Assembly: GCA_019057375.1 (NCBI GenBank) | Contig: DXJF01000011.1 | Location: 81,583-145,582 of the forward strand | From: Candidatus Heimdallarchaeota archaeon | GTDB lineage: Archaea; Asgardarchaeota; Heimdallarchaeia; Heimdallarchaeales; Heimdallarchaeaceae | Direction of reading: 5' to 3' | DNA length: 64,000 nucleotides | In this document: piece after piece, positions 1 to 16,961 of the stretch | Layout: each line of letters starts with the position of its first letter | Position numbering within the stretch: position 1 is the first letter of the stretch | Notes under the pieces: model-generated | Database searches by the model: none | What the model saw: the letters and a program-made list of their open reading frames with translations, nothing else | What the model was told of the DNA's origin: nothing | Made by a program: the position numbers and the translations under genes

Positions 1-1322
1 CCCAACCAGATCGCCCCCCTACCTGAGACTCTTGCGGAGTCCAAATGGGTATCGGGACCCGGTTTAGCCCCGTCCATTTTCTGAGCCCAACAACTCGATG
101 AGTAAGCTGTTACGCTTTTTTTAACGGATAGCTGCCTCTAAGCTTACCGCCTCATTGTCTTAGTCGTTGGACGTCATTCTGTTTAACATTTAACCGGGAT
201 TTAGGGCCCTTAACCCATTGTAGGGTTGTTCCCCTTTCGGCCATATCCCTTGCGGATACGCGCCCGTCTGTCGCCTTCTACAGCGCTTGCAAGTTCGGAG
301 TTGGAAGGGAGGGTGAGGATTTCACTCCCCAGAACCTCCCGTCCGTAGCTCTACCTCACAAGCCGCCTTCAGCGACGCTATCCTGTGGTGATACTTCGGG
401 GGGAACCAGCTATCAGCAGTTTAGATTGGTCTTTTGCCACTATCCCCAACTCAGAGGAATGAATTGCATATCAATAACCCTTCAGGCCTCCACGCTCCTT
501 TCGAAGCGCTTCACCTTGGTCAGGGATAGATCAACTGCTTTCGGGTCTTACACCTGTGACTTCACGCCCTTATCGGACGTCGCGCCTTGCCGAAGCTGCG
601 CGCTGGTCGCTTTCGCTACGCCACCGTATTAACTTAGGCTTGCCACAGACATAAACTCCTCGGCCCGTGTTTCAAGACGGAACGGATAACTCTGGTCCTC
701 TCAGCTCGTACTACCACCTCACGATGGGTTCCTTCACCGAGACTCTACCCTTTCAAGCCATCCACGTCTGTTACCATGTAGTTTCAGGGACTTTTCACTC
801 TCGTATTTCGAATACTTTTCAACTTTCACTCACGTTACTAGTGCGCTATCGGTCTAGGGGAGTATTTAGGCTTGGGAGTTAGTCCTCCCATATTTGCGCG
901 ACAAATCCAAGCCACGCTAGTCTTGATACTACTAAGCCGAGCGCTTACGTTTACGGGGTTATTACCCTCTATGACGCCCCTTTCCAGGGGCCTTCAACTT
1001 CACGCTTTCGGTCTATGTTGTAGTCAAAACACCACATCTACCTTAATTTTTCAAAAAAGGAATTCGGTTTGGCCTGTTCCGGTTTTACTCGCCGTTACTA
1101 CCGGAATCACAATTGTTTTCTTTTCCTGCAGGTACTTGAATGTTTTGGTTCCCTGCGTTCCCCGCCATTACTGGCTGTTACAGTTTATTAGACTGTAACC
1201 GGAAATCCGATTCGGGAATCTGTGGATCGTAGACTGTCTGCGTCTTCCCACAGCGTTTCGCCGCTTACCGCGCCCTTCATCGGCTCCCTAGCCGAGTCAT
1301 CCACTACATGGCGTATGCATAG
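1..1322 (-). rRNA. rrl: 23S rRNA, 5' portion (continues beyond window start)
   Basis: Minus strand near 1310 reads GTGGATGACTCGGCTAGGGAGCCGATGAAGGGCG, the conserved 23S 5' region; GC-rich conserved LSU motifs throughout; 5' end approximate. Confidence 0.96.
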
Positions 1323-1644
1323 TGTAGGTTACTCTAGAAATCAGTTTTCGCCTTCTAGGAGAGTTATTGTCAGCTAACTAAACGTAATCGTTTAGGGATT
1401 ATCATAAATCCTGGAGGTGATAAACACGCAAACTATTGCGCGAGTAGGGTTTTTATTCCCTTTGTTTATAATTGTTCCGTTTTTGAACATAATCGCAATC
1501 TTTCTGATCGCGTTCCTACCCGTTAAGGTAAGATACAACAGATAAGCAAACATCGATAGATATTCACATTATCAACAAAATGAGCTATAGATAAAAAGGT
1601 ATTGTTTTAAGATAAAATTTCCTTAAAGCTACGGAAGATTTTTA

Positions 1645-2088
1645 GTGCTTGAGAACGACTCTTATTTGAGTTACATGAACCTTGATGAACATCTCTCCGA
1701 ACTTAAACAACGTGCTGAAGAATCAAGTGTCAATGCTTTTGCTCCTTACAGTGATTTTATTATTGGTGCAGCTTTGCTAATGAAGAGTGGTAACATCTAT
1801 ACTGGATGTAATGTTGAGTTCTCAGATTATCTTGCTCTTCATGCTGAAGTTAATGCTATAGGGACAGCTATCAACAGTGGTGAAAATGATATTCAAGCTG
1901 TAGTAGTTTTTTCAAAAAGTTCACCACCTGTTCTACCTTGTGGATCATGTAGACAAAAATTATCTGAGTTCGCTCAGTTGAATAACCACGATATACAAGT
2001 GATTGCTTTTAACGATAAACAAGAGCAAATAGAGTTCTTACTAAGTGAACTTTTACCAGGAGCTAAGATACAAGTAAATAAAAAATAA
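1645..2088 (+). CDS. cdd: Cytidine deaminase
   Basis: APYSDF-IGAA, GCNVE, HAE and PCGSCRQ zinc motifs; likely start at ATG 1675. Confidence 0.93.
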   Translation: MLENDSYLSYMNLDEHLSELKQRAEESSVNAFAPYSDFIIGAALLMKSGNIYTGCNVEFSDYLALHAEVNAIGTAINSGENDIQAVVVFSKSSPPVLPCGSCRQKLSEFAQLNNHDIQVIAFNDKQEQIEFLLSELLPGAKIQVNKK

Positions 2089-2093
2089 CTTAC

Positions 2094-2276
2094 CTATTCA
2101 ATTATTTCGTAGTACATACAAGAGCCACATAACCAGAATTTCTTAATTTCAGTTAAATTATAATCATCAGGAAGATAGTTCTCTCTTTTGATCATTAATG
2201 CCCCACATTTTGGACATTCTTTTTGTTCATCACTCATAGACTTATCACATTCATCTAAACTTCTATACAAATGCAC
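2094..2276 (-). CDS. Small zinc-ribbon protein
   Basis: CPKCG...CGSC motifs in a 60 aa ORF. Confidence 0.55.
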   Translation of the reverse strand: MHLYRSLDECDKSMSDEQKECPKCGALMIKRENYLPDDYNLTEIKKFWLCGSCMYYEIIE

Positions 2277-2511
2277 ATTAATATTTTACGAAAGTCCTAG
2301 CGGAATCATTTGATTTTTAGGCTAGTAAAAACCCATTCTAAGCCTAGGTTGAAGAATGAATATAATTGGATTTGAGATCTATATACTACGAGTGAAATAA
2401 CCCTTTTCTTCCTTCCATTTGGATTTTAAAAGGGGCAGTCAAACATTATTAGAGACATACAAACAAAACATGATTATTAACAGAAATATAGAAGAAATTC
2501 AGAAGAGGAAA

Positions 2512-2616
2512 TTAAAGGAAGGACCCTTTGTGTAAGATTAAAGCTGTCATTGCTTTAGTTTTTTCCCTTTTGATTTGTTTTGCGATTGTCTCAAGAGTTT
2601 TTGCGTTCTTTTCCAT
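2512..2616 (-). CDS. Putative 34 aa small protein MEKNAKTLETIAKQIKREKTKAMTALILHKGSFL
   Basis: Hand-translated; SD-like AGGTG 6 nt upstream of ATG; no recognisable motif. Confidence 0.3.
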   Translation of the reverse strand: MEKNAKTLETIAKQIKREKTKAMTALILHKGSFL

Positions 2617-2717
2617 TTTTTGCACCTATCCTAACATAAGCTCTCCTTTTAAAATAGGTTAACCACAAGTTATGGTCACAAGTTGTGTCATAATCGCGAA
2701 AAAAATGATTGTAAAAA

Positions 2718-2753
2718 ATCTTACCACACAATTATAATTTTCTGTGGTAAGAT
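2718..2753. promoter_or_regulatory. Inverted repeat ATCTTACCAC-N16-GTGGTAAGAT, copy 1
   Basis: Perfect 10-bp arms; same arms and spacer length at 47615-47650. Confidence 0.6.
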
Positions 2754-2850
2754 ACATCTAATGACTTTTGGGGGGGTTAAATTCTGATTAACAAAACCCT
2801 CCTTTTCATCAATCCTTATAAATCGCTACTTCACACAACATGCGTTTATC

Positions 2851-3186
2851 ATGAAAGAAGTATTTCCGGAAGCAATAAGAAAACTACCTGAAGCAGATAT
2901 TCCCATACAAGGACTTACAGCCTTTTTATCCCAAGATAAGAATCATCAAATTGTCTTTATGCATTTCAATCAAGATGTAGAAGTTCCCGCACACTCACAT
3001 GGAGCTCAATGGGGAATTGTGCTAGAAGGGGAAATAGTATTAACAATAGAGGACAATGAACAAAAATATACTAAAGGAGATCGTTTCTATATTTTGGAAG
3101 GAGAGACACATTCCGCAGAAATACATGCAGGATATGCTAGCATGGAATTTTTTGCAGATAACGATAGATACAAAGCTAAGGAATAG
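2851..3186 (+). CDS. Cupin domain protein
   Basis: PAHSH...QWGIVLEGE and GETHSA cupin motifs. Confidence 0.88.
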   Translation: MKEVFPEAIRKLPEADIPIQGLTAFLSQDKNHQIVFMHFNQDVEVPAHSHGAQWGIVLEGEIVLTIEDNEQKYTKGDRFYILEGETHSAEIHAGYASMEFFADNDRYKAKE

Positions 3187-3198
3187 AGATAAATTAAT

Positions 3199-3273
3199 TT
3201 AAGCTGGTGACCAAAATGGTGGAGTTATGCTTTCGTCGCCATCTTCAGGATCGTATTTCGGTTCATTCATCAT
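3199..3273 (-). CDS. Micro-peptide A, MMNEPKYDPEDGDESITPPFWSPA (YDP...PPxWxP family)
   Basis: Hand-translated; matches peptides at 15088, 17020, 45299, 45600, 45772; SD-like GAGATGA upstream; alternative in-frame ATG at 3279. Confidence 0.85.
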   Translation of the reverse strand: MMNEPKYDPEDGDESITPPFWSPA

Positions 3274-3309
3274 GTTCATCTCAGGAAAGGTTATCATTTT
3301 AGTTAGACA

Positions 3310-3343
3310 AAGCTATTAAAGCACCCCAAAGAAAAGACTGACA
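3310..3343 (-). promoter_or_regulatory. Conserved 34-bp element upstream of micro-peptide A
   Basis: TGTCAGTCTTTTCTTTGGGGTGCTTTAATAGCTT, near-identical to 45227-45260 and similar to 45700-45733. Confidence 0.7.
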
Positions 3344-3451
3344 GTTACAGCTATTTCTGATTGGAAGAGTTGGCTAATAGATAATTGGCTTGATGAGTTT
3401 GAAAGATTAAAACCTTATTTTCTTAATTCAGAGCAATTATGACAACTAAAA

Positions 3452-3512
3452 AACTCCAAGGAATACAAGAACCCCGAGAGAAAGATTCTACAGAAGTAGA
3501 GAAATAAGGGGT
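3452..3512 (-). repeat. Copy 1 of 16S 3' processing-stem arm
   Basis: Plus strand CTCCAAGGAATACAAGAACCCCGAGA...CTACAGAAGTAGAGAA; homologous to 7098-7156 and 12626-12685; complementary in the transcript to 14391-14444. Confidence 0.85.
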
Positions 3513-3603
3513 GAAAGAACGAGTTTTATTAAATAGAAATTGTAAAAGTTGTTTCAAATGTTGTGCTTAGAAACAATTTTGAAGATTATATAAAATATCA
3601 AGG

Positions 3604-6600
3604 TTAATTTATGTTTTCAACATATTTTATTATTTCATGACTTATCATGTAACTTATTCTTTTTCCAATACCATCAATTAAATTTGACATAAAAATATCT
3701 CCTGCGTATGTATCCTCCATAATCTCAAGAATCAAAGATGGATTTATATGGTGGAAGATATCCAATAGAATTTTTGGATTGTAATTGCTTTCTACATGGG
3801 TTGCTGCATATGTTAACCAAAGAACATCCTCTTTATTTCTGATTAATTGCACTAAATTTGGTATTAATTTTATAGCTATATCTTCTTCTAAGCCTGCAAT
3901 TTCTAGAAAAGGATAAACTACCGTATCAAATGAATAATCATAATTTAGTATAATTGATTCAGAATTAATTTTATCTATTAAAAATACAGTTAGATCTTTG
4001 TTAAATACACATAATCCTTTGATAAAATGAAACAAATCAACAATATTCCATTTATCTTCTAGCTTATTTTTAATAAAATCAGAATCAAGTATAGAATTTA
4101 TATCTAAAAGAAGATCGTTTTTTGCAATATATCTCAGAGAATACAAAGTAACACCAATGTCATGAAGATCTTTTTCCGTTTTTATTTTTTCATAAAGAAC
4201 ATCCTTATCTAGTAATACAAGTATTCGAGAAATTAAATCCTCAGAAAAAAGTGATGCACTACTCAAAAGACATTTAACACCAATTAAATCTTCAGAACAA
4301 TTAACTTTTTCAACTAAATTCTTAATATTTTTCTTGTTCAATACAAGATTAATTGAGTCTGTTTCACCTAAAAAATCTAAAATTATCTCTATCTGAGACA
4401 AGTTTGTTTCAGAGTCAATTCTTTTCGTAAAATAATCAAAAATTCTTGTTTTTTTGATATTAAACTGTTTGTTTTTTCCTAAGTTATAATAAAAAAGTTT
4501 ATTCATGAAATTAATAAGATGAATAAAATCTTCATGCTCTATTGTTTTACTCAAAATGATAGATTTTCCAATGATTCCAGAGGCTATCTTAGCTAGATTA
4601 TAATTTTGGTTGATTATAGTACTAAGAAAAGAAAACGAACTATCAGGCAATATCCAGTTTATTCTCTTCAAAATTTTTCTGATTTTAATTTTCCTAAGAA
4701 ATATTCTTATATTTTTATTACTCATTTGCCAAAATAAAGATTCAATACTTTGTACAAACATCTTGCAATCTATAACATTTTTGAATTTCTTAATAAGAAT
4801 ATTCAGATATTCTTTTTGGTACTTCGAAATGATGAATCTTTCATAAAGCATTGTTATAAAGTATAAATCTTCTTCGTACTTCATGCTTTCTAATAAATAT
4901 TTCATAATCTCTCCGTCGCTAAGAAGATAATCAACAATACCTTTGGTATTATCATTCATAAGAAATTTCAAAATTTTAATTTTATAATCCTCATTTGAGT
5001 GAAGTATGTACTCTTTGAAGAGATTAAAATCATCCTCGTATCTTTCACCAAGTAAAAGTCGCAAATTATAGGAAATGCAATTTGAGAATTTTATTGCAGA
5101 ATAATAGAGCTGTGCAACAGATTGATGTGACAGAATATAAGTAATCTGAAAATAAGCACTACCAATGTGATGAATGTTGTGTTTTTCGTATAAATTCCAA
5201 ACGTTTGATATATGGACTATTTCTACTGGATAGTATAGCAAATGTTCAATTATTTCATGCTTTTCTAACAAATATTCAAGGATATGATTATGAATTTTTA
5301 AATTCTGAATTAGATAATTTTTCTCAACCCTAATATTATGTTTGGAGAATACAGATAAAATAAATACACAATCATAAAATTGATCAAGCTCTTTATGATT
5401 AAAAACTTCATCTAGACTTTCAAGTATATATTGATAGATTTCCTCTTCATGAACTTCACATTTTTCATGATCTATTGAGTTTAGAGCAAATTCTAACAAC
5501 CACAAATCTTGCCAATACTTACTCAATTGAATTTGAAGTTTAGAAAAGTTATTATGATTTCGCAAATTAGAATCATTCGGTATATGTTTTTTTACGATTT
5601 CTTCAGCAATTTCTTCAGCTGTAATTTTTAATATGGGATTTCTCTCAAATTCAGAATTTCCTCTTATTTTGAATTCAATAAGTCTTGTTCCTGCAAGTAC
5701 CAAGCTTTTTGAAGACGCATTATGTAATTTACATATGTTATTAAAAGAATTGAGATTTTCATGAATATCATCAAGAATTATTAATGGTTCTTTTCTATCA
5801 TATAGAAGTATTTTGCAAAGTTCTTCTATTTTTTCACGATTTTCTTCCTTAAAACTCAGATAATATACTGGTCGTTTTTTTGCCAATATAAAACCCACGT
5901 GCTTCAAGAATACAGATTTTCCTGATGCTGAATCACCTAAAACTATAGTTCTTTTCTGTTTTTCCAATTCTTGAATGCATTCTTTAAGTACTCTTCTTTC
6001 AACTATTTTTCCTTCCTCAAAATTTGACCAAACAGGTATTTTTTGTTTACTTTCAAAAACCTGATCTTTCCTTAAAACATGCTCAATCGAGTTTTTTTCT
6101 ATTTCCAAATATATGTATGAACTAGATCCCTTCTCTCTCAAGTAATCATGTATAATATGTTTCTTAATTGTCGTTCCTTTACAATAATTTTTAGAATTAA
6201 TGTGACCAAGAAAGTATCTTATATTGCTTTTGTTTGTTTGATATCCATATTGTTCAGCAATTTCTATTATATGATCTTCTAGTGAATCAAGTTGGATACA
6301 TTTGAATTCTACTTTTTTAATGAAATCTGATAGAATATCAACTGTTATTTTACTACCAAACATTTCAGAATAATTTTCCGGAATAATTTTACATATATCC
6401 GATAGTTCTTCTTTTGGTATTATAATTTTTGAATCTGAAAAAAACTCATCTTTGATAGGTATATTACTATAAAAAACGAAAGTCTCAACTCCTTTTGAAC
6501 GAACCAATAATTGAAGCAAAGGACCTCTTTTTCCTGAATAGAAAAGTTGTTTTGGAGTCCAGCTACTGCTGCTTTGGATACTTTTAGCTTCCCCAATGCA

Positions 6601-6741
6601 GATTTTTCTTCCGTTAGTATAAAAAGAACTGTCTTCATAGTTTTTTTCTATAGAAAATTCATCATATTTGTTTGATAGAATATGGTATAGTGCAGTTAAA
6701 ATTTGGTAATTAAATTTATGTCCAAGATGCTCATCTATCAT
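3604..6741 (-). CDS. Putative nuclease-STAND NTPase with C-terminal helical repeats (defence candidate)
   Basis: N-terminal GHKFNYQ...EKNYED...GEAK (PD-(D/E)xK, Cap4/DUF4297-like); Walker A GDSASGKS; Walker B LIILDD; ~40 aa helical repeats at C-terminus. Confidence 0.6.
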   Translation of the reverse strand: MIDEHLGHKFNYQILTALYHILSNKYDEFSIEKNYEDSSFYTNGRKICIGEAKSIQSSSSWTPKQLFYSGKRGPLLQLLVRSKGVETFVFYSNIPIKDEFFSDSKIIIPKEELSDICKIIPENYSEMFGSKITVDILSDFIKKVEFKCIQLDSLEDHIIEIAEQYGYQTNKSNIRYFLGHINSKNYCKGTTIKKHIIHDYLREKGSSSYIYLEIEKNSIEHVLRKDQVFESKQKIPVWSNFEEGKIVERRVLKECIQELEKQKRTIVLGDSASGKSVFLKHVGFILAKKRPVYYLSFKEENREKIEELCKILLYDRKEPLIILDDIHENLNSFNNICKLHNASSKSLVLAGTRLIEFKIRGNSEFERNPILKITAEEIAEEIVKKHIPNDSNLRNHNNFSKLQIQLSKYWQDLWLLEFALNSIDHEKCEVHEEEIYQYILESLDEVFNHKELDQFYDCVFILSVFSKHNIRVEKNYLIQNLKIHNHILEYLLEKHEIIEHLLYYPVEIVHISNVWNLYEKHNIHHIGSAYFQITYILSHQSVAQLYYSAIKFSNCISYNLRLLLGERYEDDFNLFKEYILHSNEDYKIKILKFLMNDNTKGIVDYLLSDGEIMKYLLESMKYEEDLYFITMLYERFIISKYQKEYLNILIKKFKNVIDCKMFVQSIESLFWQMSNKNIRIFLRKIKIRKILKRINWILPDSSFSFLSTIINQNYNLAKIASGIIGKSIILSKTIEHEDFIHLINFMNKLFYYNLGKNKQFNIKKTRIFDYFTKRIDSETNLSQIEIILDFLGETDSINLVLNKKNIKNLVEKVNCSEDLIGVKCLLSSASLFSEDLISRILVLLDKDVLYEKIKTEKDLHDIGVTLYSLRYIAKNDLLLDINSILDSDFIKNKLEDKWNIVDLFHFIKGLCVFNKDLTVFLIDKINSESIILNYDYSFDTVVYPFLEIAGLEEDIAIKLIPNLVQLIRNKEDVLWLTYAATHVESNYNPKILLDIFHHINPSLILEIMEDTYAGDIFMSNLIDGIGKRISYMISHEIIKYVENIN

Positions 6742-7097
6742 ACAAATATCATCTTTTTTGTTTATTTCAATAAAGTTTGAAATTAAATATCGAATTCAAC
6801 TTAATCTATATGTTATTTTTTACAAAGCTACTTAAATGCTTTTTTTTCTATTGGTAAAGATGAAAAATTAATATTTATAGATAAATGGAAACCTTTTGAA
6901 GATTTTGAGAGAAATATGAATAAGTTGTTAGAAACTCTAGAAGTATTAATTTAAGATATCATATTGAGAGAAATATAAGTAAAACCTGAATAAGTTAATT
7001 ATATAGATATATGGATGAATGCTAATTTGTTGGAAGAATTTACTTCAATTAAACATTATTTTTACTAAAATAAATTTCAAACTATGAAGAATAAATA

Positions 7098-7204
7098 CCC
7101 CCAAATAATACAAGAACCCCGAGAATAAGATTCTACAGAAGTAGAGAATAAAGGGTTGGGGTTGGGAAGTCTTGAAAACTTCCGAACGTAGGAGGTGATC
7201 CATC
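7098..7204 (-). repeat. Duplicated 16S 3' terminus + hairpin + processing-stem arm (copy 2; att-like scar)
   Basis: AACGTAGGAGGTGATCCATC at 7185-7204 identical to 12766-12785; hairpin 7165-7183; arm 7098-7156. Confidence 0.88.
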
Positions 7205-7250
7205 AGCTTTGAATTAAAAATTCCTTGGGGTTTAACAATGCAAGTTTATA

Positions 7251-7562
7251 TTAAATATCAATGTAACAGTTCCTGATAAGAAAATGCTTGGTAGTTGAGG
7301 TAATATGGATTCCAAAGGAAGTGCTAGACGTAATATTGTAGTTCTCAATCAAGTAAGGATCTTCATATGTACCTGAACCTGGAAAAGCTAAGAAATCTTC
7401 ATCTGAAGTAATCTCTATAGGGTCATGGTTTGTAAGATAATTAGTGTTATTAGATTGGTTAGCTTTAGTTTCTCCGTCAACAGTAATTGTTACAGAAACT
7501 AAAAAACAAAGTAGGATAAGTGTTCTTCTACATCTAGGGGACATAGTATTCTCTAGATTCAC
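7251..7562 (-). pseudogene. Truncated secreted right-handed parallel beta-helix (NosD-like) protein
   Basis: Signal-like hydrophobic segment then HDPIEITSDEDF...GSGTYEDPYLIENYNI, a typical N-terminus of such proteins; stops after 103 aa, ~45 nt from the duplicated 16S end. Confidence 0.65.
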
Positions 7563-7655
7563 TTAATTATTCTATATAAACCAGCAAGAAATTATTCAAT
7601 ACATTTTGGTTTTACCACGTTTTTAAGTCATTTTAATTATAATAACTCAGAAACA

Positions 7656-10600
7656 ATGAGAAACAGAATTTGGCTTTGTAAAATCCTCTTATTGGCTAGC
7701 ATACTTTGTGGAGGCTTTCTTCTAATTAACAGTGAGGTTGAAGCTGAACCAGGATTAAGAGATGTGACAACCAATGCTTTATTACCTTATGATATTAATT
7801 TTGAATTTAACTTCTCTGGCAGTGAAGAAGTTTATAATTTGCATTCAAATCAAATTGAATTAGGAGAACTAAATAAACTCACACTTTCTTTCCGAGTAAA
7901 CGGTATGAGCGGTTCTCCAGGATTAAAAATAGTGTTCATTTTCATGACTATTAAAGTTGGATTTGTTGTTGACCGAATTTTTAATGATGATACTTTACAC
8001 AATTTAACTGAGACTTTTCTTTTTCCTCACAACTATTCAGGTAGTATGGATATTACTGTCATTTGTAGTGGTAGTTCAACTTCTACAAGAAATGGATTTC
8101 TTACCATATTTAATAGCACTAAAATAGAACAAATGAATATTCCCACAATATCAGAGGATTCTTTTTCTCTTCCAACTTCCCAGGATTGGGTGATGTTCAA
8201 AGGTAATATATATTCTTGGAATAGAGGAGGAATTACATCTGCTTTTTACAATTACGATGAAATGGCACTAGTAAGTCTTAACATATCCTTCTCTTCAAAT
8301 TATTTTCAGTCAATAGAAAATGTAGTTGAAATTTCTTTAAATGGTAATTTTGTTGCAGAAGATTATTTCATTGAAGATTTAAGTAATAATATTGATATTC
8401 AATTTCAACCTGAAATAGGTTTGAATCTCTTATCATTGAATTTCTCTGTTTCTTATTCCTTTAATCCAATTTATATTTCAAATATCTCTCTTTTTGGCTC
8501 TCTTTTTAATTATGAATCTAGCAGTTCTACTTCAGATTCATTTAGTTGGGAAAGTGGTTTTTTTTCCTACTCTTTTGATTTATCTACGTTAAAACCCCCT
8601 GGGTACTATTCAGAACAAGTTCTTCACTTAACAATCAATTACCAATGTTTCGGAATGAAAATCTCTTCAGGAATAAACTATTTTCTAAAAATAGGGACAT
8701 CTATTCTCGAGGAAGGAACCATAAGCTATCTCGAGCAAATGTATGAGAATAATAGTTTAAAGATCGAGACCTTTACTACGGAATATCACAACCCTCTTAC
8801 GTTTAAAATTTTCGGCACTTCGAATGGGGTGGGAGGACTTACTATTTTAAATTCAAGTACGATTGAAATATCTCACATAGGTGAGCTAACAAAACAACCT
8901 TTGAGTAGAACCATAGCAGATGAAAGAAGTGTTAATGGTCCTTCTCTTGCTGTTTCGCTTAGTTTTTATGATGTCTTTCAAACTTATAGGATTGCAGCTC
9001 CTGTACAATTAGCTGTTAATTTTAATACAGTTTCTACTTATGAACATCCCTTTGATTTACTTACAGTAACAGTCAAAATTGATGGTGTAAGAGTAATATC
9101 AAAAAATGTTCATATTCTCGGTTTTGCAAATTTTAGTAAAGAATTTTCCTTAGAACATGGGTATCACGAAGTTAGAATAAATTTCCAATTTTCTGGCATT
9201 AATACTCCTCTCACAGTAGAACAATTGAAGTACCAACTAGCTTTACAAATTGAAGAAGAAATTACTGTCTCAACAGCACTCTCTTATGCTCGTCAATCAA
9301 CATTCTATCTTCTAGCCTTTTACGCCCTCCTCTATGTCCTTCTAGATGTTAAAGAAATAAATCGAGAGAGAATCAAGGAAAAAGAAAGTTCTATTCGTGA
9401 AGATTCTATCGAAGATGCAAATGATGACTCTAGGAATTTATTACGTACGGCTCTCATGGTTGTTGTAAATATATCTATTAATTTGACTCCTTCTGTTTTC
9501 TTCTTGTTGCATGGAATTAATTACTGGTTTATTTTACCCTTAAGCTTCTTTGTAGCTTTACATTTCAGTATCAAAATTCTCTTTTCGAATTTTTCGAAAG
9601 ATGCAATAGTTGGGTTTTGGAACAAAACAAGAGACTTCTTTAGAGATATCTATTCCCTCTCAGGCTTTCTTAATAAAGTTACAAGATCATTCGGAAAACT
9701 CTCTTTTAGAAGCTTAACTAGATTATTGGTCTTCGCTATAGCTTTTCTGAGCTTTGGCTTATTGTTTTTCTTGGCAGATAATATTCCTTCAAATGCTGTC
9801 AAGGAAGTCTGGATTGTCTATGCTCTTTTGCTAGTTTGTATTGTTATATCCTCTCTTACTTTATTCTACACCCTTCATTTAGTTAGAGACATGGCTTTTA
9901 TAGAGGACAATCTGAAAAGAATAAAGAGGTTAGGTTATGCTTCCATCACACTTGTTGCTGGTTTTCTATTTGTTCTTATCAGCATGTTAGGCACTAAACT
10001 CAGTCTTTCAAGCATCTGGGGTTTCCTTTCTCCAATCCTCCTTTTTGGTATTTTTCGTACAACAACTAAACTAGGAAAGATTTCTGCCAAAGAAGAAAAG
10101 CTCTCCTTTGACGATTTTCTGGATAAAGGAATGTTCTTCACTGATAAGAAGGAGATGCGAAAAGCTGTCAGTTTTGGTATCAATACTCGCTCTACTTGGG
10201 AAAAGAAAGGGTATGAACTCCAGAAACATCAGATAAAAGGTGTTATCGCTTACGATTACAACCCTGGAGATAAGATCAATCTCTATGAACTGGCTGAGAA
10301 GATTAAACTCCCCTTTAAGAAAACAGAGGAACTTGTTCAGGAGATAGAAAAAGAAGTTCCTAGATTAGGAAAATATGACCCTCAATCTAAAATCTATACC
10401 AAGAGCAAAGAGAATATTATAGAAGCTCAGGAAATTCAGGAAAAAATTGTTCCAGATAAATATGAAAATGAAGAAAAGAATGTAGAGATGAGTAAAATAC
10501 CAACAAAGAATATTTCTACAAAAGAAAGATTTCAGAAGCTGCTTGAAGAGGTAGTAGGAGAGAGTGACGAGGAGAAGAGGAGAACTCTAGAATATGTGAA

Positions 10601-12599
10601 TCATTTGACAGCTAAAGAAGCGGAAGTATATCAAAAATTCTTGAAAAAGGGATTGGGAGACCAAGATATAGTCATAACTAATTCTGACAGAGAATTTTTA
10701 CAAAGAGCATGGAAGAAGATACATGTTCAAGAAGATATTTTTCAAAGAAACAGTTCTAGCAATTTGCTGAGGGAATATTATGATAAGATATCAGATGCTC
10801 ACAACGGTTTTGATGATGTTGTGTTTGAGATAAAAAAAGAATTATTCAAAATATCCTTTTTGGAGTATAAAGTAGGTGATCGTGCAACTTACTATCCTTG
10901 GGAGTATATTCCTAAATTTGGATATCATTTGCTACGTAGAGAATTAAATGAAAAACAACTTCTTAAGTACATAGAAAAAAACCCAATAGTTGAATCTCTT
11001 TTTTCATCTCAATCAAATTTGGGGAAAAAGAAAGTTCCTTTAATCATTAGAAAGCTATACTACGACAGAAACAGGCAGTATCATATCATTGGAAATGATT
11101 GGTTAGTCAAATTCATGAATGGAGACTTTCAGAATGCTCTTTCTCATTTAGTCACTAAAGGTCTACTAACAAACAAACAGAAAAAGAGAATTACTGTGGG
11201 ATTATCGGAATTTAACCAATTGGTAGGTTTAGCTCAGAATGGACACACTTTTCGAGTTTTCGATAATACGAAAAAAATACAATTAGAATCTTGTGCAGAA
11301 ATAACATTAGGTGGAAAACAAATTATCTTATACCACGATTTCTTTTTACCTAAGTTTGAGATTAATCAAGAAAAAATCAGCATAAGTCTTCAAGGTTTTA
11401 ATAAGATAACAACTTCTAAACACAATCAATTGAACCTGCTAATTAAGAAAGAATACTTCCTCAGAGACGATCAAGAGGACAAGATTCTTGTTCTCTATGC
11501 TAAACTTAAAAGAGAATTTCTTTTAGATTTGATAAAATCTAAATTAATGGACCATTTACAGGTTTTATATGATAAAAGATATATTTCTGGACTTGATACA
11601 ATTACATCATCAGATTTTATTCCGTCTATTGATAAATTAAAAAAGCAACCCACAAGACAGAGGGGTATAGTTTGGTTTTATGATGATATTCAAGTTTCAC
11701 CTATTGATTTTCTTACTAACAAAAAATTCAAAGAAATTCTACAGGAAAAAGATGAAGAATTGCTATTTTCTAAATTAGCTTCATTACTAAGTGACACTGA
11801 AACTTTTTTTGAAGACGAAGGTAGAAAGCAATTTTCTATAGCTTATGAAGCCTATAAGAATGGACATTTCGATTTCTTTCTTTTTAATCAAAGTGTTAAT
11901 GAGATCTATAAACCTCCTACTTACTCTTTTAGGCAAGGTAATATTCCTAAAACTGGTGTTATATTAGTTGACCACAACAATAGAATAATCAACTTAATTT
12001 CCCCCTCAAAAGCTGTTAGTATTCTACTAGAAGAGGGTGATATATTGCTTAACTTTCCTTTTAGATGGGATTCACACTATGGTTATTTTGCATTCACCCA
12101 AAAAGGAAATAGAATGAGTAATGTTGCCAAGTCTTGGTATGATTGGTTGATTAAGGCAAATCTTCCCATTCCTTCAGGTTCCAGTGGTAGAATTCCTGAT
12201 ATATCAGTAATTGCAATGTTACTAGAGTGGTGGACAAGGCAAGAAAATTTTGTTATCAATAGGATTCTTTCAAACCAAGTTTTTATTGAGAGTTGTAGGA
12301 AACACAAAATTGTGGTTGATAAAGATTCTACAATGGTTATTGATTCAAAAAAGAATTCTTACAAACTTGCACGAGTTTCTGTTACTCAAACAGGAAATAT
12401 TAGACATAAAGAAAATTGGAAATATTACGCGTTTTATAATGACAAAATACGCACAGTTATTGATGTTCTTAAAGCTGCAATTTTTGATTTAGTTTTACAG
12501 AAAGGCAATATTTCTTCCGCTCAAATACCTGATTTGAGAAATTGGTTGAAGATAAATTGGTTGGAAGAATTTGAAAAACTGAAAGAATATTTCTTTTGA
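7656..12599 (+). CDS. 1647 aa multi-domain membrane protein of unknown function
   Basis: Signal peptide, ~520 aa beta-rich extracellular region, multiple TM helices (~aa 545-810), winged-helix-like segment, long soluble C-terminal region. Confidence 0.75.
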   Translation: MRNRIWLCKILLLASILCGGFLLINSEVEAEPGLRDVTTNALLPYDINFEFNFSGSEEVYNLHSNQIELGELNKLTLSFRVNGMSGSPGLKIVFIFMTIKVGFVVDRIFNDDTLHNLTETFLFPHNYSGSMDITVICSGSSTSTRNGFLTIFNSTKIEQMNIPTISEDSFSLPTSQDWVMFKGNIYSWNRGGITSAFYNYDEMALVSLNISFSSNYFQSIENVVEISLNGNFVAEDYFIEDLSNNIDIQFQPEIGLNLLSLNFSVSYSFNPIYISNISLFGSLFNYESSSSTSDSFSWESGFFSYSFDLSTLKPPGYYSEQVLHLTINYQCFGMKISSGINYFLKIGTSILEEGTISYLEQMYENNSLKIETFTTEYHNPLTFKIFGTSNGVGGLTILNSSTIEISHIGELTKQPLSRTIADERSVNGPSLAVSLSFYDVFQTYRIAAPVQLAVNFNTVSTYEHPFDLLTVTVKIDGVRVISKNVHILGFANFSKEFSLEHGYHEVRINFQFSGINTPLTVEQLKYQLALQIEEEITVSTALSYARQSTFYLLAFYALLYVLLDVKEINRERIKEKESSIREDSIEDANDDSRNLLRTALMVVVNISINLTPSVFFLLHGINYWFILPLSFFVALHFSIKILFSNFSKDAIVGFWNKTRDFFRDIYSLSGFLNKVTRSFGKLSFRSLTRLLVFAIAFLSFGLLFFLADNIPSNAVKEVWIVYALLLVCIVISSLTLFYTLHLVRDMAFIEDNLKRIKRLGYASITLVAGFLFVLISMLGTKLSLSSIWGFLSPILLFGIFRTTTKLGKISAKEEKLSFDDFLDKGMFFTDKKEMRKAVSFGINTRSTWEKKGYELQKHQIKGVIAYDYNPGDKINLYELAEKIKLPFKKTEELVQEIEKEVPRLGKYDPQSKIYTKSKENIIEAQEIQEKIVPDKYENEEKNVEMSKIPTKNISTKERFQKLLEEVVGESDEEKRRTLEYVNHLTAKEAEVYQKFLKKGLGDQDIVITNSDREFLQRAWKKIHVQEDIFQRNSSSNLLREYYDKISDAHNGFDDVVFEIKKELFKISFLEYKVGDRATYYPWEYIPKFGYHLLRRELNEKQLLKYIEKNPIVESLFSSQSNLGKKKVPLIIRKLYYDRNRQYHIIGNDWLVKFMNGDFQNALSHLVTKGLLTNKQKKRITVGLSEFNQLVGLAQNGHTFRVFDNTKKIQLESCAEITLGGKQIILYHDFFLPKFEINQEKISISLQGFNKITTSKHNQLNLLIKKEYFLRDDQEDKILVLYAKLKREFLLDLIKSKLMDHLQVLYDKRYISGLDTITSSDFIPSIDKLKKQPTRQRGIVWFYDDIQVSPIDFLTNKKFKEILQEKDEELLFSKLASLLSDTETFFEDEGRKQFSIAYEAYKNGHFDFFLFNQSVNEIYKPPTYSFRQGNIPKTGVILVDHNNRIINLISPSKAVSILLEEGDILLNFPFRWDSHYGYFAFTQKGNRMSNVAKSWYDWLIKANLPIPSGSSGRIPDISVIAMLLEWWTRQENFVINRILSNQVFIESCRKHKIVVDKDSTMVIDSKKNSYKLARVSVTQTGNIRHKENWKYYAFYNDKIRTVIDVLKAAIFDLVLQKGNISSAQIPDLRNWLKINWLEEFEKLKEYFF

Positions 12600-12625
12600 T
12601 ATTCAATTTGGGTGAAATAAAAAAG

Positions 12626-12685
12626 CCCCCAAAGAATACAAGAACCCCGAGAGAATGACACTACAGAAATAGAGAATATAAGGGG
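12626..12685 (-). repeat. 16S 3' processing-stem arm (copy 3, adjacent to the 16S gene)
   Basis: Plus strand CCCCCAAAGAATACAAGAACCCCGAGAGAATGACACTACAGAAATAGAGAA; pairs with 14391-14444 around the 16S. Confidence 0.85.
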
Positions 12686-12770
12686 ACTTCTTTCGAAGCC
12701 AGAGTTGGTCATAACAAGGCCTAAAAACAGGCCCTGCATGATCAAGGAATCCTTGAAGGATTCCAAACGT

Positions 12771-14281
<1,511 letters not shown>

Positions 14282-14390
14282 CCTGATTCGATTATGATAC
14301 GATCTATTTGCTATCTTCCATGAATTGAACTATTTTAGCGCACATACACGTACTAGTGTTTTTGTACATACTAAATTTTGTTCCTTAAAA

Positions 14391-14444
14391 TTCTCTAAAT
14401 TTCTGTAGCATCAGAACATCTCGGAGTTCTTGTTTTCCTTGGAG
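14391..14444 (-). other. 16S 5' processing-stem arm
   Basis: Complementary in the transcript to the arm downstream of the 16S. Confidence 0.8.
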
Positions 14445-14649
14445 GTGAGTGTAAAATTCATACAGTACTTTTTTATGTTTTGCAAGGGTTTTTTAAGTTA
14501 TCGTTCGACGGCTTATTGTAGTCAGCCTACAATAACTAATCTGCACTCTTACAATATGACTACTGTCTTTTCTCTTTTATTGGTTGCTATTTAAGAGTTT
14601 TTTGCCGCTATAAAAAATCAAACGTAAATTCAGAAGAATCAGTAAACGT

Positions 14650-15284: not shown

Positions 15285-16961
15285 ATGCTAGATACTGAAG
15301 AGTTTCGAGAAAGAAAAGAAAGAATTTTTCAGAATATTGGAAGTCTTAATACTTTATCTGATCTTAGTGACCATGTCTTGGATTTAGAACTCGTTTGTGC
15401 AAACGAAAGATCTTTGGAATTAGCGAACATTCTGAAGAAGACTATAATTGTAGCGAAAGAAATTGAGAATAATAACCTTTTGTATAAGTCATATAGACTG
15501 TATTTTCAGCAAATATTTTCATATGTTCAGAGATTGGATGAGGCTGAAGAAATAGTTAATTGCATGCAAACAATTGCAGAATCAAGTAATAACATAGAAC
15601 ATGAATCTCTTGTTTATTTTTCAAAAGCTCTTCTAATTAGAATTCATGGACTAATTGAAAAATCTGATGAACTTACAATTAAGGCAATGAGAAAAATAGA
15701 AAAAGGAAAGAAAATTTATCCCGATACATATTACCGTATTCTTTTTACTTATAATATGTTTATGTGGTATCGTGATAATGATTTTCCAGATGTTTTTTCT
15801 AATGTAGAAAAATGTGTTTCCTATTGGAAAGATACGTATCACACTTTACCTATGATTACAGGGATATTCAGATTACTTAGATTGTACATATTTTCAGGTA
15901 ATAGTGAAAAATTTAATAATTTAATGCAATGGATATTTGAGAAGGAAAGAATACAAGATAATTTAATTGATTATCATTTCACATTACTATATTCCTTCAT
16001 TGGTCGTATCCAAGCAATTCGATTGAATATCGACAAGGCTATAGATTTTTTATCTGAAGCATATCATAGAGTAATTTCTTCAAAATCTGAAGATATAATG
16101 ATGTACGAATATATTGAAATTCAGAAGTTATTGTGTAGAAGCTATGCATTTAAAGGAGAATTTCAAAAATCTTATCAAATCCTTATTGAGTTTCTAAATT
16201 TCGTTGAAAGTGATTTTGTTAAGCAGAATTATCAAACTTCAATGGTAAAAAGACTGTATTTTGGTGTATATTATACCCTGTTGTTTATTTTTGCTCAACT
16301 TGATGTTAATATTGATAATATAGCAGATACTCAGCTAAAGAGAATACACAATTATACAAAGAATCTTCTTGAAAAATCAAGAATTTCAGAGGATTTACTA
16401 ATAAGCAATTCTTTAGATGACAAACAATTGGATAAAATTAAAATAGAAAAAGATAAGAGACCTGTTGAGTTTGATTTATCTCTGTATCAACAGTTAAATT
16501 CTCTTAAGACACAAGCTGCTTCTGAAAATACAGTTAGTAACATAGAGTATCTGAGAGGTTATGTTTACAACCCCTTATATGCTGACATAATTTTGGGAAA
16601 GATTCATCTTTCCATTGGTAATTTTAGAGAATTTAAGAGTATAGTTAAACAAATGGAAAATAAGGAAAAAGAAGCTGATACTCCTGTTTTGATTCTTTGG
16701 ATAAAACTATATAGGTTGCTGTTTGAATACTTAGAAGATCCTGGAAATAAAGTGATATTATCAGAGTTTAGAAAATTGGAATCTTACTGCAAGAAAAATA
16801 ATTTCATCAAGATGTCAGAAGAAATTAACTTATACTTCAAACTAATAACTTCAACAAAAACAATCAATAACTTAACTCAAAAATTCCAACAAACAGCTTT
16901 TACTGATATTTATAATAAACAGTCAAAAAGAATGGTTGTTGAATATCTTGATAGTAAATAA
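15285..16961 (+). CDS. TPR-like all-helical protein 1 (558 aa), paralog of 45980..47554
   Basis: Amphipathic helix pairs; collinear similarity to the 524 aa protein; no catalytic or HTH motif recognised. Confidence 0.75.
   Translation: MLDTEEFRERKERIFQNIGSLNTLSDLSDHVLDLELVCANERSLELANILKKTIIVAKEIENNNLLYKSYRLYFQQIFSYVQRLDEAEEIVNCMQTIAESSNNIEHESLVYFSKALLIRIHGLIEKSDELTIKAMRKIEKGKKIYPDTYYRILFTYNMFMWYRDNDFPDVFSNVEKCVSYWKDTYHTLPMITGIFRLLRLYIFSGNSEKFNNLMQWIFEKERIQDNLIDYHFTLLYSFIGRIQAIRLNIDKAIDFLSEAYHRVISSKSEDIMMYEYIEIQKLLCRSYAFKGEFQKSYQILIEFLNFVESDFVKQNYQTSMVKRLYFGVYYTLLFIFAQLDVNIDNIADTQLKRIHNYTKNLLEKSRISEDLLISNSLDDKQLDKIKIEKDKRPVEFDLSLYQQLNSLKTQAASENTVSNIEYLRGYVYNPLYADIILGKIHLSIGNFREFKSIVKQMENKEKEADTPVLILWIKLYRLLFEYLEDPGNKVILSEFRKLESYCKKNNFIKMSEEINLYFKLITSTKTINNLTQKFQQTAFTDIYNKQSKRMVVEYLDSK

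Follow-up and report, generated by a model that had tools for sequence, protein, structure and literature searches.

In the window, which here means the whole 64,000-nucleotide stretch analysed (contig DXJF01000011.1 of a Candidatus Heimdallarchaeota archaeon), the 16S rRNA gene occupies 12771-14281 of the minus strand and the 5' part of the 23S rRNA gene lies at 1-1328, as located with Rfam. The genome is a 159-contig bin (89% complete, 5% contamination) with a single 16S copy, as there is one RF01959 match genome-wide. The features of the region, in the direction of rRNA transcription, are the following.

14385-14452 (-): leader (5') strand of the 16S processing stem, present once in the window; each of the three arms is complementary to it, and it is conserved in relatives
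12771-14281 (-): 16S rRNA gene (Rfam RF01959, 1294 bits)
12799-12829 (-): 31-nt mini-insertion in helix 45 ("site 2"), from alignments; not present in G009, the rest of whose 16S is 99-100% identical
12746-12788 (-): primary 16S tip (last ~17 nt), ACGTT and hairpin GGAATCCTTCAAGGATTCC
12687-12745 (-): A-type trailer insert of ~59 nt between hairpin and arm; present in G010, G023, G004, G005, G002, M57 and M71, whereas neither G009 nor copy 2 of the window has it
12608-12686 (-): arm copy 1, the 3' strand of the processing stem, then a T-run; best leader pairing (-69.2 kcal/mol)
7656-12599 (+): gene X, encoding a receptor-like membrane protein of 1647 aa; convergent with the 16S trailer
7251-7562 (-): truncated beta-helix (NosD-like) gene, first ~98 of ~385 codons
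7205-7256 (-): ~52 nt of filler between the beta-helix fragment and tail copy 2, a putative illegitimate junction
7165-7207 (-): displaced 16S tip copy 2 (from about -15 to -18) and hairpin GGAAGTTTTCAAGACTTCC
7080-7158 (-): arm copy 2, short (B-type) trailer, counterpart of the G009, G013 and M65 primary trailers
6826-7065 (+): gene X C-terminus remnant, ~80 codons (tblastn E = 0.013), adjoining the D2 repeat at 7012-7061
3604-6741 (-): STAND NTPase cargo, 1045 aa, low G+C (24-28%); Pfam nSTAND_NTPase5, E = 4.8e-10
3435-3513 (-): arm copy 3, without 16S tip and without hairpin
3329-3424 (+): gene X C-terminus remnant, 32 codons (tblastn E = 0.001)
3199-3297 (-): small peptide ORF (..KYDPEDGDE..PP.W.P), which in relatives precedes each ~530-aa TPR-like gene
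1329-3186 (no strand): conserved distal spacer part (Pfam; same order in G009, G001 and L061), containing the next four features
2851-3186 (+): cupin (Pfam)
2094-2276 (-): zinc-ribbon ORF
1645-2088 (+): cytidine deaminase
1329-1640: 23S upstream region
1-1328 (-): 23S rRNA gene, 5' part (Rfam RF02540)

Exactly two copies of the 20-mer AACGTAGGAGGTGATCCATC are found in the window (7185-7204 and 12766-12785), and none of 100 shuffles contained a match. Because Rfam places the 16S end at 12771, it consists of the 15 terminal nt of the 16S and 5 nt of trailer. Overall, the terminal ~15-20 nt of the 16S are present twice. Of the 79-nt 3' strand of the processing stem there are three direct copies (3435-3513, 7080-7158 and 12608-12686), which are 71-82% identical ungapped and 82-86% by BLAST. 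Cofolding of the arm copies with the leader (14385-14452) gives -69.2, -59.3 and -63.5 kcal/mol, as compared with -27 +/- 3.5 for shuffled arms. Copy 1, whose nearest relatives are the primary arms of G010 and M62, is presumed to be the one in use. Both window hairpins fold, and each of the eight stem pairs shows at least one double-sided compensatory change among 26 distinct copies (17 loci and the window). These data are in agreement with the preliminary description, in which a duplicated 16S 3' end, a triplicated arm pairing with the 16S leader and hairpins with compensatory changes had been noted.

It could be proposed that the extra arms are kept as working RNA or signals, being alternative 3' partners of the leader, terminators or processing sites that insulate cassettes against rRNA read-through, or decoys that tie cassette expression to rRNA maturation. 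All three window arms do pair strongly with the leader, hairpin stems are kept through compensatory changes in most internal copies too, and the 23-nt helix-1 core with its T-run is the best-kept part among ~50 trailer copies, even in half-arms; TPR cassettes run in the rRNA sense, each ending ~20 nt before this core and T-run. However, copies 2 and 3 pair less strongly than copy 1, internal tips and some hairpins decay (G004, G003, G013), and with a single leader at most one arm is usable per transcript. The unpaired trailer parts are homogenised as well, and therefore gene conversion rather than selection on pairing is indicated. That the extra arms are kept for a function of this kind is considered very doubtful. 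Such a role would be compatible with any mechanism of origin.

Cargo between the trailer copies

The earlier statement that one large gene lies between successive arm copies is roughly right for both intervals, except that the first contains the truncated beta-helix gene in addition to the 1647-aa gene X; the second contains the 1045-aa STAND NTPase, which was not found among the 24 other genomes of the genus. The beta-helix fragment has 72% identity to residues 3-98 of a G013 protein, and the full-length homologue matches Pfam Beta_helix/NosD. The beta-helix homology ends at the ~52-nt filler, which has no match to any of the relatives' loci compared.

Gene X has a signal peptide, an ectodomain and transmembrane segments; no Pfam, PADLOC or structural match was obtained for it, and a model of its C-terminal domain, of medium quality only, matched no recombinase fold. 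This domain has one match apiece in 8 of the 25 genomes of the genus and directly adjoins the 16S trailer or 16S end in seven of them; in the eighth (G013), the contig stops 35 nt past the match. The window repeat also runs beyond the arm into the 3' end of the convergent gene, a point missed previously. A C-terminal remnant of gene X follows every arm copy, which an element ending in gene X would explain too.

Arrays in related genomes

The array is found genus-wide. Between 16S and 23S, 2-5 trailer copies are present in 10 of the 24 other genomes searched in this Heimdallarchaeota genus and on 18 metagenome contigs; 2-5 copies lie 3' of the 16S in G001, G003, G004, G009, G010, G013, G016, G022 and G023, and in G001 and G009 the 23S comes after the array. 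The cassettes set apart by these copies lie in both orientations and represent over 12 gene families unrelated to one another (the cargo includes gene X, beta-helix, peptide plus TPR, S9 peptidase, subtilase, beta-lactamase fold, S-Me-THD, Schlafen/AlbA_2 and STAND NTPase), and the 16S-23S spacer ranges from ~1.7 kb to 11.4 kb, being short in L061 (~1.7 kb) and L065. An independent case outside the genus is G035, which has two copies, 8.5 kb apart, of the final 30 nt of its 16S together with hairpin and trailer.

An assembly artefact, in which a chimeric metagenome contig was joined at short repeats, might be suspected from the 159-contig bin with its 5% contamination and from the several relatives' contigs that break at the 16S 3' end. 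The repeats, however, share just 20 exact bases and are otherwise 82-86% alike, too little to fool an assembler, and the same architecture is seen in more than 10 independent assemblies, including metagenome contigs of 56 kb and 79.5 kb and a 20-contig genome, which makes an artefact extremely improbable.

The 16S of G009 and that of the window are 99-100% identical up to helix 45; thereafter the mini-intron, the trailer type and every cassette differ. Comparison of the 16S downstream region across relatives, as had been suggested, reveals no fixed arrangement: cargo varies even on near-identical 16S genes, and short spacers exist. The displaced copies differ in lineage origin. The proximal trailer of the window (copy 1) is of the type of the G010 and G023 primaries, with the G010 and M62 primaries nearest, and displaced copy 2 is a counterpart of the G009 primary, nearest to the G013 distal copy and the G009 primary; the second trailer copy of G001 is 92% identical to the G023 primary. 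Arm copy 3 is ~98% identical to copy 2 of G009 rightwards from GGGGTTCTTG and unrelated leftwards, which locates a crossover inside the arm core. Gene-conversion tracts also occur in the arrays, as in G004, where cassettes with only ~77% identity between their genes share a 236-nt trailer segment at 98.7% identity.

Many units in relatives are plain tandem paralogues with gene-conversion tracts, and this bears on a purely local origin, by which trailer and downstream genes were duplicated by unequal crossing-over and then diverged, with deletions and random illegitimate insertions, but without a site-specific break or foreign tips. Most of the relatives' units are indeed head-to-tail paralogues (trailer, gene X remnant, peptide gene and ~530-aa TPR-like gene) at ~2-kb spacing, with 71-80% identity over the whole unit. 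Arm likeness is 82% within a genome as against 65% between genomes, and truncated TPR genes in L061 and L065 point to frequent deletions. Nevertheless, the three units of the window have no cargo in common, its copies 1 and 2 are each closer to primaries of other genomes than to one another, the departure from G009 begins exactly at helix 45 beyond a near-identical 16S body, and the long 16S fragments that would sometimes be expected were not found. A purely local origin is therefore regarded as unlikely.

Borders of the displaced copies and possible enzymes

The left borders of the displaced 16S tails gather 12-30 nt before the 16S end, adjoining polymorphic mini-introns, with ~7 different left junctions between -12 and -30; junctions of related genomes may not all be independent. 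No internal copy in the relatives or the window has more than ~22-30 nt of 16S, helix-45 mini-introns aside, and the breakpoint is confined to the final ~60 nt of the 16S. Some repeat borders fall in the hairpin, at the arm start or mid-arm, and not in the 16S tip. The site-2 mini-intron is present in 7 of the 8 primaries with the long (A-type) trailer, the exception being M71, and in none of the nine with the short trailer; tip and trailer move as one block. The G022 primary is without the site-2 and site-3 mini-introns, though a displaced tip is present.

Genomic islands at tRNA and tmRNA genes are inserted by tyrosine integrases at the gene 3' end. As in those islands, the cargo here is flanked by direct repeats of the target gene's 3' end, which is restored by the element, and there is tandem accretion at one site. 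Integrative elements with the 16S 3' end as attachment site, each carrying tip and trailer, with their integrases lost, acting in trans or of an unrecognised family (possibly the gene X C-terminal domain), would give exactly the attL-cargo-attR topology seen, with a 20-nt exact core between diverged flanks; the newest unit adjoins the 16S, and gene X or a remnant lies beside every trailer copy, like an integrase gene next to attP. Against this, no tyrosine integrase was detected: PF00589 and PF16795 have no match on any of ~12 array contigs or in the genome of the window (89% complete), and none at all in six genomes (G000, G004, G009, G013, G016 and G023), which extends the earlier remark that the interval contains no integrase. 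Recombinase and transposase domains are absent from the cargo ORFs, the borders are scattered across ~18 nt and beyond and are not at one position, the arm motif is absent from 2.9 million viral contigs, and gene X has the membrane architecture described above. The 16S array also differs from the islands in that its borders are variable, the relatives' units are chromosomal paralogues and no episomal or viral form was found. Integrative elements of this kind are considered quite improbable. The view of the 16S tip as a recurrent insertion point, where each insertion has its own tip, hairpin and arm and leaves the prior copy downstream, is supported, but an element of the tRNA-island type with an integrase is not, given the lack of integrase matches on the array contigs and in this genome, the unfixed borders, the lack of viral arm motifs and the many tandem paralogues. 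Homologous recombination, offered in the preliminary description as an alternative, fits better. Integron arrays are similar in having unrelated cassettes in a row with a recurring short element between them and the newest nearest the fixed end; unlike them, the array has no IntI-type integrase, its recurring element is one strand of an rRNA processing stem instead of a self-folding attC, and its cassettes lie in both orientations, many with their own upstream regions.

Judging from their genes, endonucleases appear to act on the rRNA genes of this clade. In G016 (contig C171, matching the 79.5-kb metagenome contig) the primary trailer is directly followed by a free-standing LAGLIDADG gene of I-DmoI type, and a 63%-identical copy also comes right behind the trailer of the array in G020 (contig C359); a free-standing endonuclease is found in 2 of the 25 genomes, and neither in the window nor in its genome. 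Endonuclease-bearing introns interrupt a 16S (L057) and a 23S (G016, contig C65), and the mini-introns are too short for an enzyme gene. In the endonuclease-bearing allele, the helix-45/tip sequence is unaltered and only the site-1 mini-intron at -42 differs. In phage T4 (mobE) and with F-CphI, free-standing endonucleases are reportedly involved in homing, including "collaborative homing" with endonuclease-less introns. The likeness is that a free-standing endonuclease gene adjoins a conserved gene, that the conserved gene has short introns without an endonuclease ORF, and that flanking DNA would be co-converted into the recipient. Unlike in phages, the archaeal enzyme is in few genomes and not in that of the window, and duplication of the 3' exon tip with capture of kilobases of cargo is not a normal result of homing.

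In the same broad archaeal group, the mobile elements HeimM2 and HeimV2 are described as inserted right beside the single 16S of Candidatus Heimdallarchaeum, one of them encoding a protein homologous to rRNA-intron homing endonucleases (Wu et al. 2022, PMC8813620). The neighbours of that insertion are the 16S and a tRNA-Arg gene, whereas in the window the second neighbour is the 23S and trailer copies delimit the units. The passages of the paper retrieved by a term search mention no duplicated 16S tips, processing arms or multi-cassette array, and "direct repeat" does not occur in its text.

Proposed displacement at the 16S tip

On balance, the 16S-23S interval is probably a "displacement array" that arose through recombination at the 3' end of the single-copy 16S gene. 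DNA of a diverged relative would pair with the highly conserved 16S body, giving a homologous crossover on the left, and would bring its own 16S tip (with or without the helix-45 mini-intron), hairpin, arm with T-run and downstream genes. The right end would be joined illegitimately, as the trailers of the two lineages would be too diverged for a homologous exit, to the resident chromosome, broken or resected ~12-30 nt before the 16S end. The incoming arm would keep the 16S processing stem working, and the old tip, hairpin and arm would survive further downstream as a displaced copy, repeated rounds generating an array. Trailer copies (80-240 nt, 82-100% alike) may then act as crossover and gene-conversion sites at which cassettes are duplicated, swapped or deleted. 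This one-ended homologous and illegitimate joining is what we infer from the sequences. The right junction in the window appears to be illegitimate, with a beta-helix gene that breaks off at codon ~98 and is separated from the old tip by 52 nt of filler without a match. A homing endonuclease acting at helix 45 as the cause of the break is, as a sub-step taken alone, tentative and rather doubtful.

For the arrays of displaced 3' ends in Rhs, CDI and T6SS effector-immunity loci, the explanation given is homology-facilitated illegitimate recombination (Kirchberger et al. 2017, PMC5361080, citing Jackson et al. 2009). As in these arrays, a constant, conserved 5' part is the homologous anchor, the 3' end is replaced by the incoming module and old 3' ends are pushed downstream into strings of orphans with differing neighbours, without an integrase and with later exchange between arrays by ordinary homologous recombination. 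The anchor here is an rRNA gene instead of a toxin gene, the displaced part is the 16S tip with an RNA-processing arm that the gene needs, the host is archaeal, the cargo does not consist of effector-immunity pairs, and the 16S borders gather within ~18 nt, hinting at a targeted break. It is somewhat probable that in this Heimdall-type Asgard group genes have been inserted repeatedly at the 16S tip, each with a fresh tail and processing arm and each pushing the old copy downstream, which would have given rise to a fast-changing row of cassettes.

Tip, arm and cargo of the 16S-23S spacer

The 16S rRNA gene, which is single-copy in the genome of the window, and the 23S rRNA gene have the same orientation and are separated by 11.4 kb in the window. 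Three copies of the 16S trailer are found between them, of which copy 1 adjoins the 16S gene (the primary trailer) and copies 2 and 3 are displaced.

rRNA genes and cargo genes in the window
12771-14281, minus strand: 16S rRNA gene (Rfam, archaeal)
7656-12599, convergent on the 16S trailer: gene X, 1647 aa, no family match
7251-7562: truncated beta-helix gene, codons 1 to ~98, 72% identity to the full-length gene of G013 (same genus)
3604-6741: STAND NTPase gene, 1045 aa
3199-3297: orphan peptide ORF, in the spacer
Rest of the spacer, after this ORF: cupin gene, zinc-ribbon ORF, cytidine deaminase gene and 23S upstream region
1-1328, minus strand: first 1328 nt of the 23S rRNA gene (Rfam)
15285-16961 and 45995-47548: TPR-like genes elsewhere in the window

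In agreement with the preliminary description, the 20-mer at the 16S tip, consisting of the final 15 nt of 16S and ACGTT, is present exactly twice (12766-12785 and 7185-7204) and is absent from shuffled sequences. The tip is repeated as a block together with a hairpin and the arm (12608-12788 and 7080-7207), and the arm, corresponding to the 3' strand of the 16S processing stem, occurs in triplicate, also as described, forming a 79-nt direct repeat (12608-12686, 7080-7158 and 3435-3513) that extends into the 3' end of the convergent gene X. The pairing proposed for the 16S leader (14385-14452) is reproduced with every arm, with cofold energies of -69, -59 and -63.5 kcal/mol, compared with -27 kcal/mol for shuffled arms. 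Around 16S, the leader-trailer helix consists of an outer helix of 26 bp and an inner helix of ~17 bp (-69 kcal/mol); in the minimum-energy fold these are separated by an asymmetric internal loop, and no clean canonical 3-4-3 bulge-helix-bulge could be drawn by hand.

The hairpin stems are preserved by compensatory changes, as noticed before, at 8/8 pairs when considering 26 copies, and this is expected if every copy evolved as a working primary trailer. The leader is almost invariant and the arm variants yield mismatches or G-U pairs, not compensated pairs, so that selection on the leader-arm pairing is not demonstrable. It is possible that the stranded arms are additionally active in RNA, as terminators or as leader partners. 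In the long (A-type) trailers, which have a ~59-nt insert, a 17-nt stretch of the insert (12729-12745) matches the 16S 5' end (14258-14274; TTGATCATGC.GG.CCT) at 15 of the 17 positions; this resemblance is probably due to chance, being absent from some A-type trailers.

The last ~45 nt of 16S can also carry up to three mini-insertions of 31-36 nt, located after AAAGTCGT, after CCGTA and after CCTGCGGA; these positions are referred to as sites 1 to 3. The window has one such mini-insertion at 12799-12829, and others are found in L031, L032, L016, L061 and further loci of relatives. Close relatives differ in whether they have these mini-insertions, and the internal hairpins of the mini-insertions show compensatory changes relative to one another.

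Remnants of gene X-type C-termini adjoin trailer copies 2 and 3. The C-terminal domain of gene X has no match in Pfam or PADLOC, and its AlphaFold model, with six homologues, reaches a pLDDT of only 62. No match to this model is found with Foldseek in the PDB at E <= 0.001, which does not by itself show the fold to be new, and with VIA wide the best Z is 5.1, limited to a 53-residue helical piece. This domain occurs once in the genome, beside the 16S trailer, and four paralogues of the N-terminal ectodomain, with 25-40% identity, are found at other positions (C22:16330-19082, C12:77209-78804, C12:5579-7183 and C77:19537-21009). Separately, it is observed that small ORFs encoding ..KYDP..GDE..PP.WFP peptides precede genes for all-helical TPR-like proteins of ~530-560 aa without a Pfam family, and that these pairs are tandemly amplified in the 16S-23S spacers of relatives.

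Arrays in relatives and the origin of the trailer copies

Multiple trailer copies follow the 16S gene in 10 of the 24 other genomes searched in the genus, with a spacing of often about 2 kb, and further arrangements are seen on 18 metagenome contigs. The common unit of the relatives, read in the rRNA sense, consists of the 16S tip, the hairpin, the arm with a T-run, an antisense gene X remnant, a peptide gene and a gene for an all-helical TPR-like protein of ~530 aa. Alternative cargo includes gene X with the beta-helix gene, an S9 peptidase, a subtilase, a beta-lactamase-fold protein, S-Me-THD and Schlafen/AlbA_2. The array of G001 and that of G009 terminate, as in the window, at the cytidine deaminase and 23S genes. 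An independent case is found in a genome of another genus of the same order (G035), where the final 30 nt of 16S, the hairpin and about 100 nt of trailer are duplicated 8.5 kb downstream (L045, G035:C26, 1880-2060 and 10300-10600), again with compensatory changes in the hairpin. The genes between these duplicates are mostly unknown, with one Schlafen/AlbA_2 protein. The large convergent genes at both trailer copies of this genome were considered as gene X counterparts, and proved related neither to gene X nor to one another.

The array is a feature at the level of the genus and not peculiar to the window contig. The 16S 3' flank also breaks assemblies in this group; an assembly artefact is nevertheless very unlikely, because the arrays recur in genomes of the genus and on metagenome contigs, and because of the independent case of G035. 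Nor is the arrangement fixed among relatives, the opposing outcome named in the preliminary description: the cargo differs, and the window and G009 have no cassettes in common in place. The shortest spacer, of only about 1.7 kb, is found on a metagenome contig (L061), and on another (L065) the trailer is joined almost directly to the counterpart of the cupin region of the window. Both alleles bear truncated TPR genes and are therefore not clean empty sites.

The 16S gene and leader of the window and of G009 are 99-100% identical as far as helix 45, and beyond this point the window has the 31-nt mini-insertion and an A-type trailer, of which G009 has neither. Across the relatives, the 16S bodies are 96-100% identical, whereas the A-type and the short (B-type) trailers differ by the ~59-nt insert and by 16% substitutions and are followed by unrelated genes. 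The site-2 mini-insertion is present in 7/8 A-type primaries and in 0/9 short-type primaries; the 16S tip and trailer are a linked block. A variable insert linked to its flank in this way is what mobility driven by a homing endonuclease would show. As a practical caution, the last ~60 nt of 16S and the region beyond can have had another history than the remainder of the gene.

The nearest relatives of copy 1 of the window are the primary trailers of G010 and M62, the counterpart of copy 2 is the primary trailer of G009, G013 and M65, and copy 2 of G001 is 92% identical to the primary trailer of G023. As judged from these comparisons, the displaced copies derive from different lineages. Tandem duplication as the sole cause of the array in the window is rejected, since no cargo is common to the three units and their nearest relatives are different. 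The trailer copies do recombine with one another: the arm identity is 82% within genomes and 65% between genomes, and a trailer tract of 236 nt in G004 is 98.7% identical between cassettes, although their genes are only about 77% identical. Copy 3 of the window and copy 2 of G009 are about 98% identical on the right of GGGGTTCTTG and unrelated on the left.

At the distal junction in the window, the beta-helix gene is cut at codon ~98 and followed by a 52-nt filler, which matched nothing, and then by the old tip; this junction is illegitimate. The left borders of the displaced tips, about seven junctions, are clustered between -12 and -30 (counted in nt before the 16S end) and are not identical. 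No internal copy carries a piece of 16S longer than this range, and the other repeat borders are located inside the hairpin or the arm.

Recombinases and a proposed displacement

The array has the topology of islands in tRNA genes, with cargo between direct repeats of the 3' end of the target, and differs from these in that no integrase is found. Searches with PF00589 and PF16795 gave 0 matches in the window's genome (an 89%-complete assembly) and likewise no match on array contigs from 25 genomes, and with Pfam no recombinase domain is found in the cargo, in a search covering every large ORF of the interval and of the relatives' arrays. Four small (~250-aa) serine recombinases are encoded in the genome, all on contigs other than that of the array. 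The arm core has 0 exact matches in viral contigs; a looser search with a 20-mer gave 7 matches, of which 6 fall in phage contigs of high G+C, and these are considered to be due to chance because none has the arm context. About 30 TnpB-like (Cas12f1-like TNB) matches are observed in the genome. TnpB was rejected as the agent, as none of these is in the 16S interval and the TnpB of the G005 locus is not beside an arm.

An integron is not indicated either. No tyrosine recombinase is found, the 16S gene forms the fixed end, the cargo uses both strands, and the arm pairs with the distant 16S leader, not with itself, as an attC site would. The array of 16S-targeting elements proposed in the preliminary description is partly supported: there is repeated insertion at the 16S tip, each time with a replacement arm, and no evidence is found for an element of integrase type.

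Orphan arrays of Rhs, CDI and T6SS genes arise by 'C-terminal displacement' through homology-facilitated illegitimate recombination (PMC5361080). The characteristics of such displacement, in which an incoming 16S tip and trailer would here push the old one downstream, are also found at the 16S gene: there is a conserved upstream anchor, homology is lost downstream, the distal junction is illegitimate, and the orphaned old 3' ends are in age order, with counterparts that are primary in other lineages. The likeness is one of process, whereas the anchor is here an rRNA gene and the replaced part is an RNA-processing arm. The array is a fresh form of a known evolutionary process. The 16S gene, shared almost unchanged by all relatives, appears to be a landing pad for foreign DNA without an integrase, this DNA includes defence-like genes (STAND NTPase, Schlafen/AlbA_2), and the needed processing arm is exchanged at every insertion step.

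Endonucleases, the mini-intron sites and a possible route to rRNA unlinking

LAGLIDADG domains occur frequently in the genus, for the most part inside long open frames, which may be inteins. A free-standing gene for a 204-aa I-DmoI-like protein begins about 50 nt beyond the primary trailer of 16S, in the rRNA sense, on contig G016:C171, which matches a 79.5-kb metagenome contig (L068). This endonuclease has a Pfam LAGLIDADG_3 match with E = 2.7e-15 and a full-length alignment to I-DmoI with E = 4e-7. A copy that is 63% identical, likewise in the rRNA sense and immediately behind the 16S trailer, is located upstream of a peptide-TPR unit on G020:C359. No free-standing endonuclease is found in the window or in the arrays of its genome.

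I-DmoI-like genes in relatives
L083:275-886 (G016:C171), corresponding to L068:324-935
L085:20-454 (G020:C359)

Introns with an endonuclease ORF are present in rRNA genes as well: the 16S gene of the metagenome relative L057 (4064-6433) has 2370 nt compared with 1478 in the model, with a LAGLIDADG-like ORF in a ~800-nt insertion, and the 23S gene of G016:C65 (L086:1287-5521) has 4235 nt compared with 2987 and contains a LAGLIDADG ORF. Elements beside the single 16S gene of Heimdallarchaeum, one with a homing-endonuclease homologue, are described by Wu et al. 2022 (PMC8813620), in passages that make no mention of duplicated tips, processing arms or a cassette array.

The cluster of borders is located just 3' of site 2 (-27), and in G001 at site 3 (-13), as a break there followed by limited resection would give. 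It is possible that an endonuclease break at the mini-intron sites is the trigger, with the candidate enzyme encoded outside the genome of the window and with M71 and G022 as exceptions. In such a scheme, an endonuclease would break 16S at helix 45, at the sites now bearing mini-introns, and the break would be repaired by one-ended homologous copying from a diverged donor, which would continue through the donor trailer into the adjacent genes. Each event would install a new arm, strand the old arm and capture kilobases of cargo. The complete sequence of helix-45 breaks, one-ended donor copying, cargo capture and a drive towards rRNA unlinking is put forward tentatively, as a reading that we consider rather improbable.

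A comparable process may operate at the 23S trailer. Just upstream of the window start (contig G000:C12 of the same genome), a direct repeat of ~100 nt, about 98% identical and with sharp borders, begins about 25 nt beyond the 3' end of 23S and is found again 10.2 kb downstream (L074:17205-17309 and 6971-7075). Among the cargo between these repeats, all of it in the rRNA sense, are a TnpB-like ORF and a gene X ectodomain paralogue; upstream modules of peptide genes follow the second repeat.

In Asgard archaea, 16S and 23S genes are as a rule unlinked, and the route of their separation is open (Jüttner and Ferreira-Cerca 2022, PMC8997704). In the genus, the spacer between the two genes, in the same orientation, ranges from about 1.7 kb to 11.4 kb, and in other genera of the same order their distance is more than 13-18 kb. 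As the spacer grows by identifiable insertions, this provides a possible route to rRNA unlinking that is concrete and testable. Repair of 16S breaks by copying, if true, would constitute a path of gene acquisition not described before, and a mechanism by which linked rRNA genes reach the 'unlinked' state that Asgard archaea typically show.
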